Below are positions 32 to 8,812 of a stretch of 64,000 bases of DNA, piece after piece. Under the pieces are notes generated by a model. That model saw only the letters and a program-made list of their open reading frames with translations. It ran no database searches and was not told the origin of the DNA. The stretch's first letter is position 1. Every line of letters begins with the position of its first letter. The translations under genes and the position numbers were made by a program. Source of the DNA: a virus; the IMG/VR virus record IMGVR_UViG_3300010346_000749, positions 1 to 64,000 of that record; one strand, given 5' to 3'.

Positions 32-105
32 AGGGATATAGTTTAATGGTAAAACGAAAGCCTTTGGAGCTTTAGATTCTTGTTAAATTCAAGATATCCC
101 TGCCA
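32..105 (+). tRNA. tRNA-Gln (anticodon TTG), CCA encoded
   Basis: Hand-folded cloverleaf: acceptor AGGGATA/TATCCCT, D stem GTTT/AAAC, anticodon stem AAAGC/GCTTT with loop CTTTGGA, T stem TCTTG/CAAGA (loop TTAAATT, lacks usual C56), G then CCA. Confidence 0.8.
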
Positions 106-476: not shown

Positions 477-530
477 GGTTCTTGTTAGTTAGGAAGTCTG
501 AAGCAAACTTTCTAAAAGTTATTGTAATAT

Positions 531-606
531 CGGGAGTTAGTGAAGTCTGGTCTATCACACCTACCTTGGGCGTAGGTAATCATTGGTTCAAATCCAATAC
601 TTCCGA
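531..606 (+). tRNA. tRNA-Pro (anticodon TGG)
   Basis: Acceptor CGGGAGT/ACTTCCG (one G-T), D stem GTGA/TCAC, anticodon stem CCTAC/GTAGG loop CTTGGGC, T arm ATTGG-TTCAAAT-CCAAT, discriminator A. Confidence 0.85.
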
Positions 607-607
607 G

Positions 608-643
608 TCCTTCAATGATAATCTACTTCCACGTAGTGAAGGA
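608..643 (+). repeat. tRNA-trailing hairpin motif, copy a
   Basis: TCCTTCA...CACGTAGTGAAGGA directly after tRNA-Pro; related to 860-893, 1032-1065 and 7450-7483. Confidence 0.5.
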
Positions 644-699
644 TGGTAATTGACTAATAGGCAAGCTAAATGATTATCAATATATGTTTGACTGATTAT

Positions 700-771
700 T
701 TCTGAAATAGTTTGGACCAAACTATTAAGTTTGTAATTGGTCGGATGAAAATTAATTTTCATGCTCCACCA
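700..771 (+). mobile_element. relic of endonuclease cassette end plus orphan RNA 3' end
   Basis: TAGTTTGGACCAAACTATTAAGTTTGTAATT resembles the ends of both cassettes (1862-1895, 7390-7425). As there, an orphan 3' end follows (hairpin ATGAAAA/TTTTCAT, then GCTCC-A-CCA). No ORF retained. Confidence 0.4.
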
Positions 772-786
772 GGCACACAATAATTC

Positions 787-858
787 GGGATTGTGATGAA
801 ATCGTTATCATAACGGACTTTTAATCCGTCTTTTAGAGTTAAAATCTCTACAATCCCA
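787..858 (+). tRNA. tRNA-Lys (anticodon TTT)
   Basis: Acceptor GGGATTG/CAATCCC, D stem ATGA/TCAT, anticodon stem ACGGA/TCCGT loop CTTTTAA, T stem TAGAG/CTCTA (loop TTAAAAT), discriminator A. Confidence 0.8.
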
Positions 859-859
859 G

Positions 860-893
860 TCCTTCAGAGAAGAAGCCTTTACGTGGCGAAGGA
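860..893 (+). repeat. tRNA-trailing hairpin motif, copy b
   Basis: CCTTC-AGAGAAGAAGCCTTTACGTGGC-GAAGG immediately after tRNA-Lys; near-identical to 7450-7483. Confidence 0.5.
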
Positions 894-943
894 TATAAGT
901 AGCTTCAATAGGAAGTGAAACTAATTCTTTTAAATTTTAATAT

Positions 944-1029
944 GGAAAATACCGCTGAATGGTCGGCAACCGGACTTGAAATCCGGGGTTTCCCTTATAA
1001 GGAAAGAGGTTCGATTCCTCTATTTTCCG
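944..1029 (+). tRNA. tRNA-Ser (anticodon TGA), long variable arm
   Basis: Acceptor GGAAAAT/ATTTTCC, anticodon stem CCGGA/TCCGG loop CTTGAAA, extra arm GGTTTCCCTTATAAGGAAAG, T arm AGAGG-TTCGATT-CCTCT, discriminator G (followed by CAT, not CCA). Confidence 0.85.
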
Positions 1030-1031
1030 CA

Positions 1032-1065
1032 TCTATCATGATAAATGCCTCTACGTGGCGATAGA
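1032..1065 (+). repeat. tRNA-trailing hairpin motif, copy c (divergent)
   Basis: TCTATC...GCCTCTACGTGGC-GATAGA just after tRNA-Ser; shares the CTACGTGGCGA core with the other copies. Confidence 0.4.
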
Positions 1066-1104
1066 CAGAAACGTATAGTAAAATATACGGCTAAATTTAT
1101 CAAT

Positions 1105-1854
1105 CTAATTTAATTGTTCAATTCTTTTATCAATAACAAAACAAATGGCGTCAACAAATTTTTGAGAAGATTTAACTGTAAACTTCTTTTGAGAAGAAAC
1201 ATCAATGATGCAAAGATTAATATTTTTCTCTTGACAGAGTTGATGTTTTCTAGCATCTTTATCTAAAATGTTTTGAAATTTGGAATCCTTTTCTTCACTT
1301 GTTTTACCAAAAACAGGTTGATAATGAAAAATACCATTCAATTCAAATGCCAAATTTAAAGATGGAATGTAAATATCAAGTTCCAGACCATCGAGAGTTT
1401 TTCTATCATTGTATTCAATATTTAAATTCAAATATTTTTCTTGAAGAGTGTTTTGAAGATAAAGTTCCAATTTGCTTCTTCGATATCCAGAAGTTTTGTG
1501 TGTGTTATTATATGTGGCGGCACAAGAACGAGAACAGAAATCGTTCCCGGATTTTGAAAGTTCAGAATTTTTCTTTTTAATTTCTTTTCCACATTGGGCA
1601 CATTGAATGATTTTAGATGTTGAACGAAATTGTCCATGGCAAGAATGGGAACAAAAAATTTTAAATCCCCTTTTGATTTTGGTTTGAATTTCGTTTTTTG
1701 GAACATAAAATGTTTCACCACAATTGAGACATTTAATAGGAAGTTTGTCTCTTGAACCTGTATTTATAAATTCCCATTCGGAAAATAGAAATTGTTCATT
1801 GTCCATAAAATGGCCATATTCTTCATAATTCTTTTTACACATTTTAAAAATCAC
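1105..1854 (-). CDS. putative homing endonuclease: N-terminal CxxC zinc-ribbon repeats plus C-terminal PD-(D/E)XK (Vsr/DUF559-like) nuclease
   Basis: 249-aa ORF. Motifs CLNCGETF and CAQCGKE. C-terminal RSKLELYL...LELDIYIPSLNLAFELNGIFHY matches the S-x-L-E...D-x-Y-I-P...A-I-E-x-x-G pattern of that nuclease family (from memory). Paralog at 6647-7381. Confidence 0.6.
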   Translation of the reverse strand: MIFKMCKKNYEEYGHFMDNEQFLFSEWEFINTGSRDKLPIKCLNCGETFYVPKNEIQTKIKRGFKIFCSHSCHGQFRSTSKIIQCAQCGKEIKKKNSELSKSGNDFCSRSCAATYNNTHKTSGYRRSKLELYLQNTLQEKYLNLNIEYNDRKTLDGLELDIYIPSLNLAFELNGIFHYQPVFGKTSEEKDSKFQNILDKDARKHQLCQEKNINLCIIDVSSQKKFTVKSSQKFVDAICFVIDKRIEQLN

Positions 1855-1898
1855 TCCTTAATAGTTTTGGTTCTACTATTAAGTTTGGAATTTTTATT

Positions 1899-1921
1899 TT
1901 CGATTCCTCTATTTTCCGCCA
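1899..1921 (+). repeat. orphan duplicate of tRNA-Ser(TGA) T-loop-to-CCA end
   Basis: TTCGATTCCTCTATTTTCCG-CCA; identical over 21 nt to 1010-1030, and this copy carries the CCA. Confidence 0.8.
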
Positions 1922-1963
1922 GTAAAAATAAATGATTGGAGAATACGACAACACTCTCCAATC
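1921..1963 (-). terminator. minus-strand intrinsic terminator-like hairpin
   Basis: GATTGGAGA...TCTCCAATC stem followed on the minus strand by ATTTATTTTTACT; homologous hairpin at 6583-6625 lies just downstream of the second endonuclease ORF. Confidence 0.45.
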
Positions 1964-1992
1964 AAATCATCCTAATTATAATTTTATCAAAC

Positions 1993-2883: not shown

Positions 2884-2930
2884 GCCTCTATAGCTCAAGT
2901 GGAAGAGCAATTGCCTTGTAAGCAATAGGT
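2884..2930 (+). pseudogene. 5' two-thirds of a canonical tRNA-Thr(TGT), truncated after the variable loop
   Basis: GCCTCTA-TA-GCTC-AAGTGGAA-GAGC-A-ATTGC-CTTGTAA-GCAAT-AGGT, then no T arm or TAGAGGC strand; second copy at 8457-8505. Confidence 0.4.
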
Positions 2931-2938
2931 TCCCTTAT

Positions 2939-3013
2939 GCCGAATTAGTATATCACCTATTATGCCTGTCTTGTAAACAGGAGAAAGCCGGGGAGCACGG
3001 CTATTCGGCTCCA
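2939..3013 (+). tRNA. non-canonical tRNA-like gene, anticodon TGT (Thr), CCA encoded
   Basis: Perfect acceptor GCCGAAT/ATTCGGC, then T and CCA. Anticodon arm CCTGT-CTTGTAA-ACAGG. T arm AGCCG-GGGAGCA-CGGCT lacks TTC. D arm irregular. Confidence 0.4.
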
Positions 3014-3239
3014 ATAATCACTCACTTTTCTGAAGGTTGTAGTTTTTAAGCTTTCTAAAAAATTTCTTTTTGGTATGTTGAAATTGAACCGAACAATCAA
3101 GATTATCAAATTCCGACTGAATTAATAGGTTATTGTCCAAAAGACAACTAATTGCCAATCAAATCCAGATATGATTGGTTTATATCAAATTGAATTAAAT
3201 AATGTGTCTTGGTTGGTAAACATGTTCAATTTGCTTTAT

Positions 3240-3362: not shown

Positions 3363-3509
3363 ATGGAAATGAGTAGGGCAGAACAATTTGAAAAACTGTC
3401 GAAACCAATTGAAGGACAATCATCTATTCTTAGTGATCGAAATGGAAAAAGTTTTTCTGTTGGCGATAAGGTTGAATATACCACCAATGAAGTAGAATAT
3501 GATTCATAA
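3363..3509 (+). CDS. small hypothetical protein (paralog of the 2190 ORF N-part)
   Basis: ATG after GGAAAGGAAG; 48 codons MEMSRAEQ...GKSFSVGDKVEYTTNEVEYDS then TAA; GDKV motif parallels GDTV of the 2190 ORF. Confidence 0.35.
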   Translation: MEMSRAEQFEKLSKPIEGQSSILSDRNGKSFSVGDKVEYTTNEVEYDS

Positions 3510-3543
3510 GGTATGCCATTTTTTGTAAAGAAAATATATACGG

Positions 3544-3729
3544 TTGAATCTATTAGAAATTACCTTAAAACATTTTATATTCCATCGCGATGGAATTCAA
3601 ACTCCCAAAATCATAACTTCAATAACACTTCTTTATGAAAGCCGTTATCATTATGAAAACTATCGTCGTGGGGTTCGATGGACAGAATTAATTAAGGGCA
3701 GATTAGAAGTCCTATCGTCAATTGATTAA
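3544..3729 (+). CDS. hypothetical ORF (paralog of 2251-2463 C-part)
   Basis: 61-aa ORF in the +1 frame relative to 3363-3509; LLYESRYHYENYRRGVRW resembles YYLHYYRYRNPFISW of 2251-2463; non-ATG start. Confidence 0.3.
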   Translation: MNLLEITLKHFIFHRDGIQTPKIITSITLLYESRYHYENYRRGVRWTELIKGRLEVLSSID

Positions 3730-5656: not shown

Positions 5657-6126
5657 CATTTGAATTTGATAATACCTATTGCCTTCAAATTAAGCCAGAG
5701 GATTTGAAAATACCTTTTCTATCATTTGAGGAATCTCTAAACTTTCTTAGAAATGGTAGAGTTGGTGGGTTCTTGGTTGAACAAATGTTAAAGAATATGT
5801 TTGGATTTAAATTGACACAAAACAATAGTATGTATGATGCTGAATTTAATGGTAAAAAGATTGAAATTCGAACAATCAATAAAACAGGTTCTAATTTAAT
5901 TCCTTCAAATATGATCGGTGCCAGTAGGAAATATGATGAAAAGAAATATCTACAGAAACTTGGTTCAATTGATTATTTTTGTTTTGTTGATATGAGAAAT
6001 TTGCCAAACATATTTATCTTTTGTTATCCTTCGAAAAGGTTCTATCAGAATGGTGTAATGAAGACTTTGCCGAAAGAATTGATGACAAAAAAATTAACTG
6101 CAAAAATTGAAATGGTGAACGCTTGA
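5653..6126 (+). CDS. hypothetical protein, possible PD-(D/E)XK nuclease partner of the methylase
   Basis: 157-aa ORF overlapping the methylase stop by 4 nt (ATGA); YDAEFNGKKIEIRT could be a D...E-x-(K/R) nuclease core. Confidence 0.3.
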   Translation: MTFEFDNTYCLQIKPEDLKIPFLSFEESLNFLRNGRVGGFLVEQMLKNMFGFKLTQNNSMYDAEFNGKKIEIRTINKTGSNLIPSNMIGASRKYDEKKYLQKLGSIDYFCFVDMRNLPNIFIFCYPSKRFYQNGVMKTLPKELMTKKLTAKIEMVNA

Positions 6127-6151
6127 CAGACTGACCGAGATATGGTATACT
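6123..6151 (+). promoter_or_regulatory. sigma70-type promoter with extended -10
   Basis: TTGACA 6123-6128, 17-nt spacer ending TGG, TATACT 6146-6151, followed by TGTTCTTGTCAG as in the other modules. Confidence 0.7.
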
Positions 6152-6499: not shown

Positions 6500-6576
6500 G
6501 GCCCTGTAGCCCAATTGGCAGAGGCAAGGGACTTAAAATCCCTCAGGTATGGATTCGAATTCCATCAGGGCCACCA
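6500..6576 (+). tRNA. class-I tRNA with anticodon TAA (Leu by anticodon, no long extra arm), CCA encoded
   Basis: Acceptor GGCCCTG/CAGGGCC, anticodon stem AGGGA/TCCCT loop CTTAAAA, 5-nt variable loop, T arm ATGGA-TTCGAAT-TCCAT, A then CCA. Confidence 0.75.
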
Positions 6577-6582
6577 ACACCA

Positions 6583-6625
6583 GTAAAAATAAATGATTGG
6601 AGAATGTTGGCCGCATTCTCCAATC
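6583..6625 (-). terminator. intrinsic terminator of the endonuclease gene (minus strand)
   Basis: Stem GATTGGAGAAT/ATTCTCCAATC followed on the minus strand by a T-rich run; lies about 20 nt beyond the stop of 6647-7381. Confidence 0.6.
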
Positions 6626-6646
6626 AAATCATCCTAATCTATTTAA

Positions 6647-7381
6647 TTATTCCAATCTCTTGTCTATAACGAAACAAATAGCATCAACAAATTTCTGTGA
6701 TGATTTGATAGTAAATTTCTTTTGGGAAGAAATATCTATAACACAAAGATCAATCTTTTTTTCCTGACATAACTGTTGTTTTTTAAAGTCTTTGCCTAAA
6801 ATATTTTGGAATTTAGAATCTCGTTCTTCATCAGATTTTCCGAATACTGGTTGATAATGAAAAATACCATTCAGTTCAAATGCTAAGTTAAGTGATGGAA
6901 TATAAATATCTAATTCTAGTCCATCTAAAGTTTCTCTGTCGTTATACTCAATATTTAGATTTGTATATTTTTCTTCGAGAACATTTTGTAGATAAGTTTC
7001 AAGTTTGCTTCTTCTATATCCAGATATTTTGTGAGTATTGTTATATTTGGCGGCACAAGAACTAGAGCAGAAATTATTTCCTGATTTTGATTTTTTAATC
7101 TGGCTTAAAAGTTTTTTACATTCTTTTCCACATTGGGTGCATTTAACAATTTGAGTTTTATTTTTGGTTTGAAATTCTTTACGACATTCAGAGGAACAAA
7201 ACATGTTTTCACGGTTCTTTCTAAGAAATACATGTATTTTTATTTTTGATCTGTAAAATGTTTCACCACAATTGAAACATTTAATAGGAAATTCTTCTTT
7301 ATATGAAGAATCATAATATTCCCATTCTGAAAAAAGAAATTGTTCATTATTCATAAAATGTTTACACATTTTAAAAATCAC
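6647..7381 (-). CDS. putative homing endonuclease, paralog of 1105-1854
   Basis: 244-aa ORF; same MIFKMCK...NEQFLFSEWE start, CxxC ribbons and C-terminal LELDIYIPSLNLAFELNGIFHYQPVFGK block. Confidence 0.6.
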   Translation of the reverse strand: MIFKMCKHFMNNEQFLFSEWEYYDSSYKEEFPIKCFNCGETFYRSKIKIHVFLRKNRENMFCSSECRKEFQTKNKTQIVKCTQCGKECKKLLSQIKKSKSGNNFCSSSCAAKYNNTHKISGYRRSKLETYLQNVLEEKYTNLNIEYNDRETLDGLELDIYIPSLNLAFELNGIFHYQPVFGKSDEERDSKFQNILGKDFKKQQLCQEKKIDLCVIDISSQKKFTIKSSQKFVDAICFVIDKRLE

Positions 7382-7427
7382 TCCTTAATAGTTTGGTGGT
7401 TCTACTATTAAGTTTGGAATTTTTATT

Positions 7428-7447
7428 TTCGAATTCCATCAGGGCCA
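7428..7447 (+). repeat. orphan duplicate of the 3' end of the tRNA at 6500-6576
   Basis: TTCGAATTCCATCAGGGCCA identical to 6554-6573. Confidence 0.8.
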
Positions 7448-7449
7448 AC

Positions 7450-7483
7450 CTTTCACAGAAGAAGCCTTTACGTGGCGAAAGGT
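7450..7483 (+). repeat. tRNA-trailing hairpin motif, copy d
   Basis: CCTTTC-ACAGAAGAAGCCTTTACGTGGC-GAAAGG right after the orphan tRNA end. Confidence 0.5.
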
Positions 7484-7602
7484 ATAAGTAATCCTATCAG
7501 GATGATTAATCCTTTGGGATGAAACCAATTCTCTTAAATTAAGAATGAAAGGAGATAAATCATAATGGATAATAGTCCGCCGTGGTATTCCTTTTTTCAT
7601 AT

Positions 7603-8456: not shown

Positions 8457-8505
8457 GCCTTTATAGCTCAAGTGGTAGAGCAGTTGTCTTGTAAACCATA
8501 GGTTT
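8457..8505 (+). pseudogene. second copy of the truncated canonical tRNA-Thr(TGT) 5' portion
   Basis: GCCTTTA-TA-GCTC-AAGTGGTA-GAGC-A-GTTGT-CTTGTAA-ACCAT-AGGT; no T arm or acceptor 3' strand. Confidence 0.35.
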
Positions 8506-8512
8506 CGTTTAT

Positions 8513-8587
8513 GCCGAATTAGTATATCAGCTATTATTCCTGTTTTGTAATCAGGAGAAAGCCGGGCAGCACGGCTATTCGGCTCCA
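8513..8587 (+). tRNA. non-canonical tRNA-like gene, anticodon TGT, copy 2
   Basis: GCCGAAT...CCTGT-TTTGTAA-TCAGG...AGCCG-GGCAGCA-CGGCT-ATTCGGC-T-CCA; collinear with 2939-3013. Confidence 0.4.
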
Positions 8588-8812
8588 ATGTGGGAAGATC
8601 ACGGATGCAGATAATAGGCGTGGTCAAGAATTGGTGTGGTGGCGGGTTCTGCCAATTCACTTATTATATCTTTTTATATTTTCCGAGCGAGTTTAATAAA
8701 TAATTGATTTAATATTAAGACATTCAATATATTGAATGGGTTCCAAACAAAAAATTAATTGATATTAAATCATTAAAATTGTTTGTTAAATTCAAAAGAT
8801 TCAAAAGCTTCA

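Follow-up and report, generated by a model that had tools for sequence, protein, structure and literature searches.

Candidate homing-endonuclease cassettes at the T-loop of phage tRNA genes and their association with predicted theta ribozymes

Introduction

The closest analogue of the elements described here is found in fungal mitochondria, where the so-called mORFs duplicate the 3′ ends of the genes in which they reside: they carry a replacement for the C-terminal part of their host gene and leave the native part downstream as an unused duplicate, as in atp6 of Allomyces macrogynus and in atp6, atp9, cox2, and nad3 of Glomus (PMC3630166). With regard to transfer RNA (tRNA) genes, the endonuclease SegB prefers RAWTSGAAC, the complement of GTTCSAWTY in the T-loop (PMC13096335), and the half-sites TTxG/CxAA are recognized by I-Bth0305I (PMC3239194). 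Theta ribozymes of gut phages, for their part, cut the 3′ trailers of tRNAs that are usually devoid of an encoded CCA, and genes for a CCA-adding enzyme and an RNA ligase are frequent in the phages that harbor them (PMC10879173). Here, we analyzed the first 64 kb (hereafter, the window) of the 183,498-bp IMG/VR virus record IMGVR_UViG_3300010346_000749, a genome with direct terminal repeats, in which two nuclease genes are each bracketed by two copies of a tRNA 3′ end. From the anatomy of these two cassettes and that of related loci, it seems fairly probable to us that they are free-standing homing-endonuclease elements housed inside phage tRNA genes, which enter at position T54 and bring along a replacement 3′ end together with a device to form it.

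Results

Two Nuclease Genes Are Bracketed by Exact Copies of tRNA 3′ Ends

The tRNA genes of the phage all lie on the plus strand, within its first 8.5 kb. As claimed by an initial reading of the DNA without database searches (hereafter, the sequence-only reading), exact direct repeats bracket two minus-strand nuclease open reading frames (ORFs) of this cluster: TTCGATTCCTCTATTTTCCGC is found at 1010-1030 and again at 1899-1919, on either side of nuclease gene 1 (21/21 nt), and TTCGAATTCCATCAGGGCCA at 6554-6573 and 7428-7447, on either side of nuclease gene 2 (20/20 nt). Both repeats extend from T54 of the T-loop (TTCGA...) to the discriminator, with one additional C in cassette 1, and by our own arithmetic the chance of a 20-mer match between two 300-nt flanks is about 1e-7. 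A functional copy of the tRNA 3′ end upstream and an unused one downstream thus flank each endonuclease ORF, as in mORF-type elements. Between the repeats, the nuclease is the sole ORF, and the element holds no tyrosine or serine recombinase gene.

Read in the sense of the tRNAs, cassette 1 is composed of tRNA-Ser, a ribozyme, the ORF, a control block, an orphan 3′ end with its CCA, and a terminator, whereas the order in cassette 2 is tRNA-Leu with its CCA, a terminator, the ORF, the control block, the orphan, and a ribozyme-like unit (table 1). The near-identical terminators at 1933-1964 and 6594-6626 occur in the 183-kb genome only at the two cassettes, and the former is read as the leftover of an older cassette. 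It was also rightly noticed at first reading that in cassette 1 CCA is confined to the distal copy (1919-1921); in cassette 2, it is carried by the proximal copy (6574-6576). The same reading held that the host tRNA stays intact and proposed 3′-end mapping to see which copy yields it: the tRNA is indeed whole and, since a tRNA body adjoins the proximal copies alone, no others can yield a tRNA. The missing CCA of tRNA-Ser is no defect, because a predicted ribozyme starting at 1031 would set the 3′ end and because the phage encodes, outside the window, a protein of the tRNA nucleotidyltransferase (CCA-adding) family as well as an RNA ligase (157534-157923 and 137607-138233, respectively); the CCA-less state of tRNA-Ser is the normal one for a ribozyme-processed tRNA. 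As for the orphans, the best reading is that of older 3′ ends which were displaced together with their old trailers.

The cassette ends are homologous to each other, in agreement with the sequence-only reading, positions 1868-1903 being identical to 7397-7432 (36/36). The whole 58-nt block from the start codon to the T-loop (1846-1903) matches cassette 2 except for a 2-nt indel in a loop, an identity that is notable because the synonymous sites of the two ORFs are near saturation (dS 1.18). The hairpin ahead of the start codon does not have a statistically unusual fold (z-score -0.5 to -0.7).

Table 1. Features of the window that relate to the tRNA-borne cassettes
Feature	Position	Strand	Remarks
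tRNA-Gln(TTG)	32..105	+	Uninterrupted; empty site relative to contig L084
tRNA-Pro(TGG)	530..607	+	
Theta (HDV-like) ribozyme	608..685	+	Directly after tRNA-Pro; model R1, 43.3 bits, E 4e-6
ORF-less cassette relic	690..771	+	Cassette upstream hairpin and linker, then short tRNA-3′-like tail ending in CCA
tRNA-Lys(TTT)	787..858	+	
HDV-like ribozyme candidate	859..931	+	After tRNA-Lys, no cassette adjoining
tRNA-Ser(TGA)	944..1030	+	Last 21 nt are the proximal repeat; without full CCA
HDV-like (theta) ribozyme	1031..1102	+	Begins at first base past tRNA-Ser
Nuclease gene 1	1105..1854	-	249 aa; two zinc fingers and Vsr-like/EDxHD-type nuclease domain
Upstream block of gene 1	1846..1898	-	Start codon, AAGGAG, hairpin 1857-1865/1875-1883, AT-rich linker
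Orphan copy of tRNA-Ser positions 54-74	1899..1921	+	Repeat 1899-1919 plus CA, hence a CCA end
Intrinsic-terminator hairpin, termB copy 1	1933..1964	-	
tRNA-Leu(TAA)	6500..6576	+	CCA encoded; proximal repeat at 6554-6573
termB copy 2, terminator of nuclease gene 2	6594..6626	-	ACACCAG before it on the plus strand
Nuclease gene 2	6647..7381	-	244 aa; 69% identical to gene 1
Upstream block of gene 2	7373..7427	-	Conserved; hairpin 7384-7392/7404-7412
Orphan copy of tRNA-Leu positions 54-73	7428..7447	+	
HDV-like ribozyme-like unit	7448..7535	+	Directly after discriminator of the Leu orphan
HDV, hepatitis delta virus.

The Nuclease Joins Two Zinc Fingers to a Vsr-like Domain

The family has no members in the 183-kb genome besides the genes at 1105-1854 and 6647-7381, and the comparison between the two sequences gives a dN/dS of 0.16 at the above dS, so that both are under purifying selection as proteins. 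The N-terminal part of the product comprises two CxxC...CxxxC fingers, for which zinc fingers of the zf-FCS/TRASH type are the sole Pfam matches; a profile search of the PDB matched MYM/FCS fingers and, weakly, 3r3p (E 0.63). The C-terminal half belongs to PHROGs families annotated as homing or HNH endonucleases. In an AlphaFold (AF2) model computed from 24 homologs (mean pLDDT 85.5), the C-terminal domain was found by Foldseek to resemble Vsr (1cw0/1vsr, prob 1.0), PvuRts1I, AbaSI, and the catalytic domain of I-Bth0305I (3r3p). Residues E158, D160, N173, H177, and D200, invariant in the 24 homologs, fit the E-D-x-H-D signature (PMC3239194), and from their position we infer that they may correspond to D51/H64/H69/D97 of Vsr. 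No GIY-YIG domain was matched in protein-family searches, the fold being Vsr-like, and the Pfam scan revealed no NUMOD or helix-turn-helix (HTH) DNA-binding modules, the zf-FCS/TRASH-type fingers standing instead.

The zinc-finger matches on the one hand, and the Vsr-like fold and motif on the other, bear out the initial description of a zinc ribbon fused to a PD-(D/E)XK-like nuclease. Likewise, that the ORFs look like free-standing homing endonucleases is supported by the Vsr/EDxHD fold, the PHROGs matches, the existence of paralogs, the ORF-less relics, and the presence/absence pattern at tRNA-Gln described below. Among cultured phages, megablast retrieved no close relatives, and tblastn yielded distant matches to the C-terminal part only.

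The T54 Junction Recurs across the Family

The nuclease family includes more than 3,700 relatives, from which 80 IMG/VR loci were fetched, 67 of them non-redundant (L-numbers below). The tRNAs lie on the strand opposite to the nuclease gene in 59 of these 67 loci (308 tRNAs) and on the same strand in two (18 tRNAs), and the stop codon is abutted by a tRNA 3′ end or by a ribozyme in 35 loci. Exact orphans of 19-20 nt starting with TTCGA are present in L011/L012 and L031/L032 (two different tRNA-Met), in L058 (a CTA suppressor), and in L056, next to a near-exact orphan in L015 (17 nt) and a partial one in L080 (13 nt); about ten loci retain an orphan that begins at T54. Moreover, 35/64 loci have TCGAA (in ORF sense) 30-54 nt ahead of the start codon, when 13% would be expected. 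With T54 junctions in several independent tRNAs (those for Ser and Leu, two for Met, the CTA suppressor, Gln, and others), the 53/54 junction is a property of the family rather than of this phage. The interpretation offered at first reading is supported in part, its proposal that the family targets T-loop DNA having in its favor the recurrence of the junction and, in another nuclease family, the precedent of SegB; a T-loop target would be plausible by analogy, TTCGAA being palindromic and both SegB and I-Bth0305I having comparable sites, with cleavage presumably in or near TTCGA.

In L014, L023, L060, and L061, the changes that set the orphan apart from the working copy come in runs, in the T stem and the acceptor, a pattern that looks like another allele rather than like the outcome of random decay. 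The number of family copies per genome ranges from 1 to 4, some of them not adjoining a ribozyme. In L060 (2400-2470), two nested partial tRNA-Met 3′ ends stand in tandem upstream of the nuclease gene, which is the expected trace of the repeated invasion of one site.

As a separate observation, the heptamer TATTTAT (ATAAATA in tRNA sense) lies near the start of 36/66 nuclease genes, against 0.07 expected per window of search, for instance 10-25 nt ahead of the start codon in L011, L031, L023, L024, L047, L048, L061, L076, and others; it is missing from both cassettes of the 64-kb stretch and may be a promoter or a control site.

Predicted Theta Ribozymes at the Junction of tRNA and Nuclease Gene

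The sequence-only reading had captured the DNA anatomy of the cassettes and overlooked both the terminators and the RNA parts, namely, the ribozymes or ribozyme-like units at 608-685, 859-931, 1031-1102, and 7448-7535. Three of these (starting at 608, 859, and 1031) begin immediately past the last base of tRNA-Pro, tRNA-Lys, and tRNA-Ser, respectively. The 1031-1102 unit, drawn by hand, would fold into P1 (UCUAUC/GAUAGA), P2 (GAUAAAU/AUUUAUC), P3 (GCC/GGC), and P4 (ACGUAU/AUACG) with CUAAA as J4/2, gives an end-to-end match to RF02682 in a local search (E 6e-5), and is identical in contig L084. The candidate behind tRNA-Lys, with a 7-bp P1 including G1-U, a GCC/GGC P3, and an L3 of UUUACGU, has a weak Rfam match to the CPEB3 model over 848-931 (E 5e-4). 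The first 46 nt of the 7448-7535 unit are 87% identical to this tRNA-Lys unit, with an enlarged P4 region and CCAA as J4/2, the two sharing a perfect 7-bp P1, the GCC/GGC P3, and the UUUACGU loop. Judged from their sequence, the units of the window are predicted to be self-cleaving theta ribozymes such as those described in gut phages.

Using a sequence descriptor, we found a ribozyme after 8/34 of the tRNAs that abut the nuclease ORF versus 1/290 of the other tRNAs from the same loci (p 5e-8). Rfam contains no theta-specific model, and a covariance model (R1) was built from 11 such units and scanned over 435 kb, where 19 of its 22 matches abut a nuclease gene. The theta ribozyme abuts the stop codon in 17 loci, and in 13/17 it overlaps the ORF by exactly 20 nt: the stop codon is fused within J4/2 (CTAAGA) and the last codons within a strand of P2. 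The helices covary, as 92% of cells are paired, 14/15 pairs are compensatory, and 0/500 shuffles score as high, the alignment having been fitted to the model. Among the 8 ribozymes of five whole phage records, 6 abut a member of the family, with one ribozyme per record present owing to the way the records were selected.

We then took the census from the side of the ribozymes by scanning IMG/VR with a ribozyme sequence pattern that covers one sequence subtype only and by filtering the hits with the model. Among 30 unique ribozymes, 26 had enough downstream sequence. Nine of these are followed by an antisense Vsr-like gene, four by an HNH_3 endonuclease gene immediately downstream on the same strand, one (L158) by what by eye is a possible HNH gene remnant, one by a GIY-YIG/NUMOD3 gene beyond one tRNA, and two by an ORF-less relic with an orphan; no endonuclease was detected for about nine. 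Hence, about 60% of the 26 ribozymes lie at the junction of a tRNA and an endonuclease gene from one of three families, or of a relic. The HNH_3 genes, a few bases past the ribozyme, are located at L127:6017-6609, L136:1143-1715, L094:1076-1664, and L187:4266-4835, the last one scoring 22.8 bits, just below the Pfam cut-off of 24.8, and the GIY-YIG/NUMOD3 gene is at L182:5455-6262. At these HNH_3 and GIY-YIG loci, the ribozyme would cut a tRNA-endonuclease co-transcript. Elsewhere, the ribozyme beside an intact 224-aa nuclease gene at L018:3179-3252 has an A at the catalytic C of J4/2 and ACT for ACG in L3, and looks like an inactivated one from these substitutions.

Neither endonucleases and homing nor duplicated tRNA ends are mentioned in the main text of the theta-ribozyme paper (PMC10879173), and a full-text literature search combining HDV-like ribozymes and homing endonucleases returned nothing relevant. 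The components are already known, be it free-standing homing endonucleases, mORF-type replacement of 3′ ends, or theta ribozymes; the link between ribozyme and endonuclease, and the fused cassette in tRNA genes, appear to be undescribed so far.

An ORF-less Relic and a Cassette Variant at tRNA-Gln

The relic at 690-771 aligns with the upstream ends of both cassettes and of L084, and the claim of a third, ORF-less copy with a CCA end holds in this respect; its tail (...GCTCCACCA) is, by contrast, no copy of the 3′ end of the adjacent tRNA-Pro. The stretch 608-771, i.e., the tRNA-Pro ribozyme and the relic, is a cassette that lost its ORF. The same form, in which a ribozyme is followed by few remnants, the start region, and an orphan, is encountered in L104 (orphan 17/18) and L123 (15/18) of IMG/VR.

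L084 is a contig of 1,092 bp and the one metagenome contig found to contain this tRNA-Ser, in the single metagenome scan. Over tRNA-Ser, the ribozyme, and the first 180 nt of the ORF, its identity to the window is about 100%; further on, where it switches to a third cassette variant, its identity to both cassettes is about 78%. The upstream end of this variant continues at T54 into the 3′ end of tRNA-Gln and then into 22 nt equal to positions 106-127 of the window, downstream of tRNA-Gln, so that the distal copy carries the native tRNA-Gln flank, even though the contig may be chimeric. As tRNA-Gln is intact in the window and joined to a cassette in L084, it displays a presence/absence polymorphism; whether L084 is a recombinant or an assembly join, its sequence would place a third cassette variant at tRNA-Gln in a near-identical phage population. 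Of the comparisons with uninterrupted relatives that the sequence-only reading had called for, this one of L084 with the tRNA-Gln of the window is the only one available; no clean empty site for tRNA-Ser or tRNA-Leu was found.

The T-loops of tRNA-Gln (32-105) and tRNA-Lys (787-858) read TTAAATT and TTAAAAT, an A replacing the near-universal C56, when the T-loop of the cassette-fused tRNA-Gln orphan (L084:1040-1070) reads TTCAATT. It is speculative, but a tRNA gene without the TCGA/TCAA core could thereby be shielded from invasion.

Other Features of the tRNA Cluster

Four near-consensus sigma-70-type promoters (TTGACA, 17 nt, TATACT or TAGAAT, with TG before each of the latter) head sections of the cluster on the plus strand, at 169-197, 448-476, 2546-2574, and 6123-6151; a sigma-70 promoter was also looked for ahead of either nuclease gene, and none was found. 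Two small paralogous genes, at 2189-2463 and 3363-3729, have frames broken near 2285 and 3507, and seem to need a frame shift or a read-through to be read whole. Finally, an 86-nt repeat (92% identical) with a 7-bp closing helix (GCCGAAT/ATTCGGC) occurs at 2930-3015 and 8504-8589, behind truncated tRNA-like units.

Discussion

On the basis of these observations, we propose that the mobile unit would comprise four parts in tRNA sense: (1) a replacement tRNA 3′ segment, which runs from T54 as far as the discriminator; (2) a means of forming a clean 3′ end, in the usual case a theta/HDV-like ribozyme with which the end of the nuclease ORF is fused, or in cassette 2 an encoded CCA and the terminator of the gene itself; (3) the antisense gene for the nuclease with its two zinc fingers and Vsr-like domain; and (4) the conserved upstream control block, which ends exactly at the T-loop. 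The element would supply the maker of the tRNA 3′ end because an antisense gene now follows the tRNA. Insertion between 53 and 54, presumably through double-strand-break repair, would leave the tRNA whole and shift the resident 3′ end and its trailer downstream as an orphan, and with repeated invasions orphans would stack and ORFs get lost. Under this scenario, cassette 2 would have entered a tRNA-Leu that already bore a ribozyme from an earlier element, cassette 1, of the ribozyme type, a tRNA-Ser whose 3′ end came from an older CCA-plus-terminator cassette, and the tRNA-Pro element would have lost its ORF. The displacement of an earlier 3′ end and trailer at each entry would account at once for the ribozyme-like unit behind the orphan of cassette 2, the CCA and terminator behind that of cassette 1, and the nested orphans of L060.

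Several points weigh against this proposal. Exact-pattern searches of IMG/VR gave no empty sites for tRNA-Ser, tRNA-Leu, or the tRNA-Met of L011, no clean pair of empty and occupied sites with both flanks was found, and L084 may be an assembly chimera, i.e., the join of two paralogous cassettes, instead of a true recombinant. There is no gradient of identity away from T54, as co-conversion would leave, just a sharp 58-nt identical block, and for an insertion flanked by repeats, the sequence alone does not say which copy came in. The intact proximal tRNA restores 20 bp or more to either side of T54, which leaves self-immunity unexplained, and the serial-invasion history of cassette 1 requires an extra deletion. 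With regard to the ribozymes, the Rfam scores are below the gathering scores, with 35.5 bits versus 44 for 1031-1102, 24 versus 35 for 848-931, and 19.3 versus 35 for 7441-7535, and theta ribozymes are also found without an endonuclease (L145, L116, and 859-931 of the window), so that the ribozyme may be a resident "safe harbor" rather than cassette cargo.

The first alternative, which we hold to be unlikely, is that the orphan is a functional cargo: the cassette would be settled behind a resident tRNA-ribozyme unit and would carry at its far end a copy of T54 to 73, which the broken T-loop end could use as a homology handle during homing, or which the nuclease could bind, beside its own promoter, as an operator or decoy, much as I-TevI binds an operator within its own promoter. 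The exactness of several orphans, the fixed spacing of the T-loop remnant from the start codon (35/64 loci), and the 58-nt block adjoining it, kept identical despite near-saturated synonymous sites, could leave room for such a function. Moreover, L011 and L031 share their flanks and yet each orphan exactly matches its own tRNA-Met, the tail of the window relic is unlike the adjacent tRNA-Pro, and most loci have no ribozyme after the orphan, although cassette-free tRNA-ribozyme units exist. However, the discriminator of the cassette 2 orphan abuts a ribozyme-like unit as in intact tRNAs, which is how a displaced resident end would look, many loci have no recognizable orphan beyond a pentamer, and an exact orphan has been kept in L104 although the ORF is gone.

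We judge it very unlikely that the duplicates are scars of a nuclease-driven amplification of tRNA segments, later collapsed, rather than of a discrete insertion. Such a process is known for SegB in T6, which cuts T-loop-like motifs and yields tandem repeats of tRNA and segB via microhomology (PMC13096335), and the nested partial orphans of L060 would agree with it, but a tandem unit predicts the same trailer twice, when the trailers differ (ribozyme versus CCA-terminator) and come in opposite order in the two cassettes, and no second partial copy of the ORF is present. Two further candidates were dropped: a simple tandem duplication, as different trailers follow the two copies, and an origin of the CCA-bearing copies from mature tRNA via an RNA step, as orphans in other loci are without CCA. 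Least likely of all is a non-selfish phage factor that would be co-regulated and act with tRNAs or ribozyme-cut RNAs in repair, processing, or counter-defense: its tight physical fusion with the ribozyme, the RNA-repair-type genes of the phage, and the purifying selection on the gene would suit such a role, but in 59/61 tRNA-bearing loci the gene runs antisense to the tRNAs, it occurs in variable copy number and at times not next to a ribozyme, it leaves ORF-less relics, its closest folds are DNA endonucleases, and HNH_3 and GIY-YIG endonucleases are found at the same place behind theta ribozymes.

Beyond the two cassettes, it is conceivable, though we would not bet on it, that theta ribozymes belong for the most part to homing-endonuclease elements colonizing phage tRNA genes, as their insulator module. 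Each element would then bring a spare tRNA 3′ end with a self-cleaving RNA to release it, and many isolated ribozymes and orphan ends would be fossils of repeated invasions. This would give these recently described ribozymes an alternative reason for existence, and would explain the orphan tRNA 3′ ends and "isolated" ribozymes of large phage genomes, which is relevant to tRNA annotation. If true, insertion at T54 would represent a third way, beside introns and inteins, for a selfish nuclease to inhabit an essential gene without breaking it, and it provides a testable picture of how such a nuclease occupies highly conserved and constrained tRNA genes at no cost to the host. The enzymes themselves form a large family of compact zinc-finger and Vsr-like proteins that may recognize the near-universal TTCGA sequence of the T-loop.

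It remains to situate the cassettes among known systems. Integrase-borne islands and prophages in tRNA genes are likewise flanked by direct repeats of the tRNA 3′ part and regenerate the tRNA; the window cassettes differ from them in having no integrase, a size of 0.9 kb, and a boundary fixed at T54. In the R2 retrotransposon, which resides in an RNA gene, an HDV-like ribozyme cuts the co-transcript where host and element meet, but R2, a retroelement, thereby has its own 5′ end freed, whereas the cut predicted here would free the 3′ end of the host tRNA. The EDxHD/Vsr-like enzymes I-Bth0305I and phage Hef share with our proteins the catalytic fold, the conserved E, D, H, and D, and a phage-borne, for some free-standing, condition (PMC3239194); I-Bth0305I is, however, intron-encoded in recA and binds DNA through NUMOD/HTH modules, whereas the window proteins have two zf-FCS/TRASH-type fingers and a similarity that is marginal (E 0.63). 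SegB of T4 and T6 is also a free-standing homing endonuclease of a phage tRNA cluster that reshapes tRNA loci by recombination (PMC2330249, PMC13096335), but it is a GIY-YIG enzyme of unrelated fold, for which no flanking tRNA-end duplicate or ribozyme has been reported. With the published theta ribozymes, described as devices of tRNA maturation and recoding, our units share the RNA architecture, the position at the tRNA 3′ end, the CCA-less tRNAs, and the company of a CCA-adding enzyme and an RNA ligase (PMC10879173). The mORFs come nearest, in that an endonuclease gene lies near the 3′ end of an essential gene, with the replacement segment upstream, the native one downstream, and alleles that may differ. 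Their hosts are nonetheless protein-coding genes, their ORF is in sense and often in frame, of the LAGLIDADG or GIY-YIG type, and without a ribozyme, whereas the cassettes of the window have a tRNA as host, an antisense ORF, a duplicate of only 20 nt, and a 3′ end that would be made by a ribozyme.

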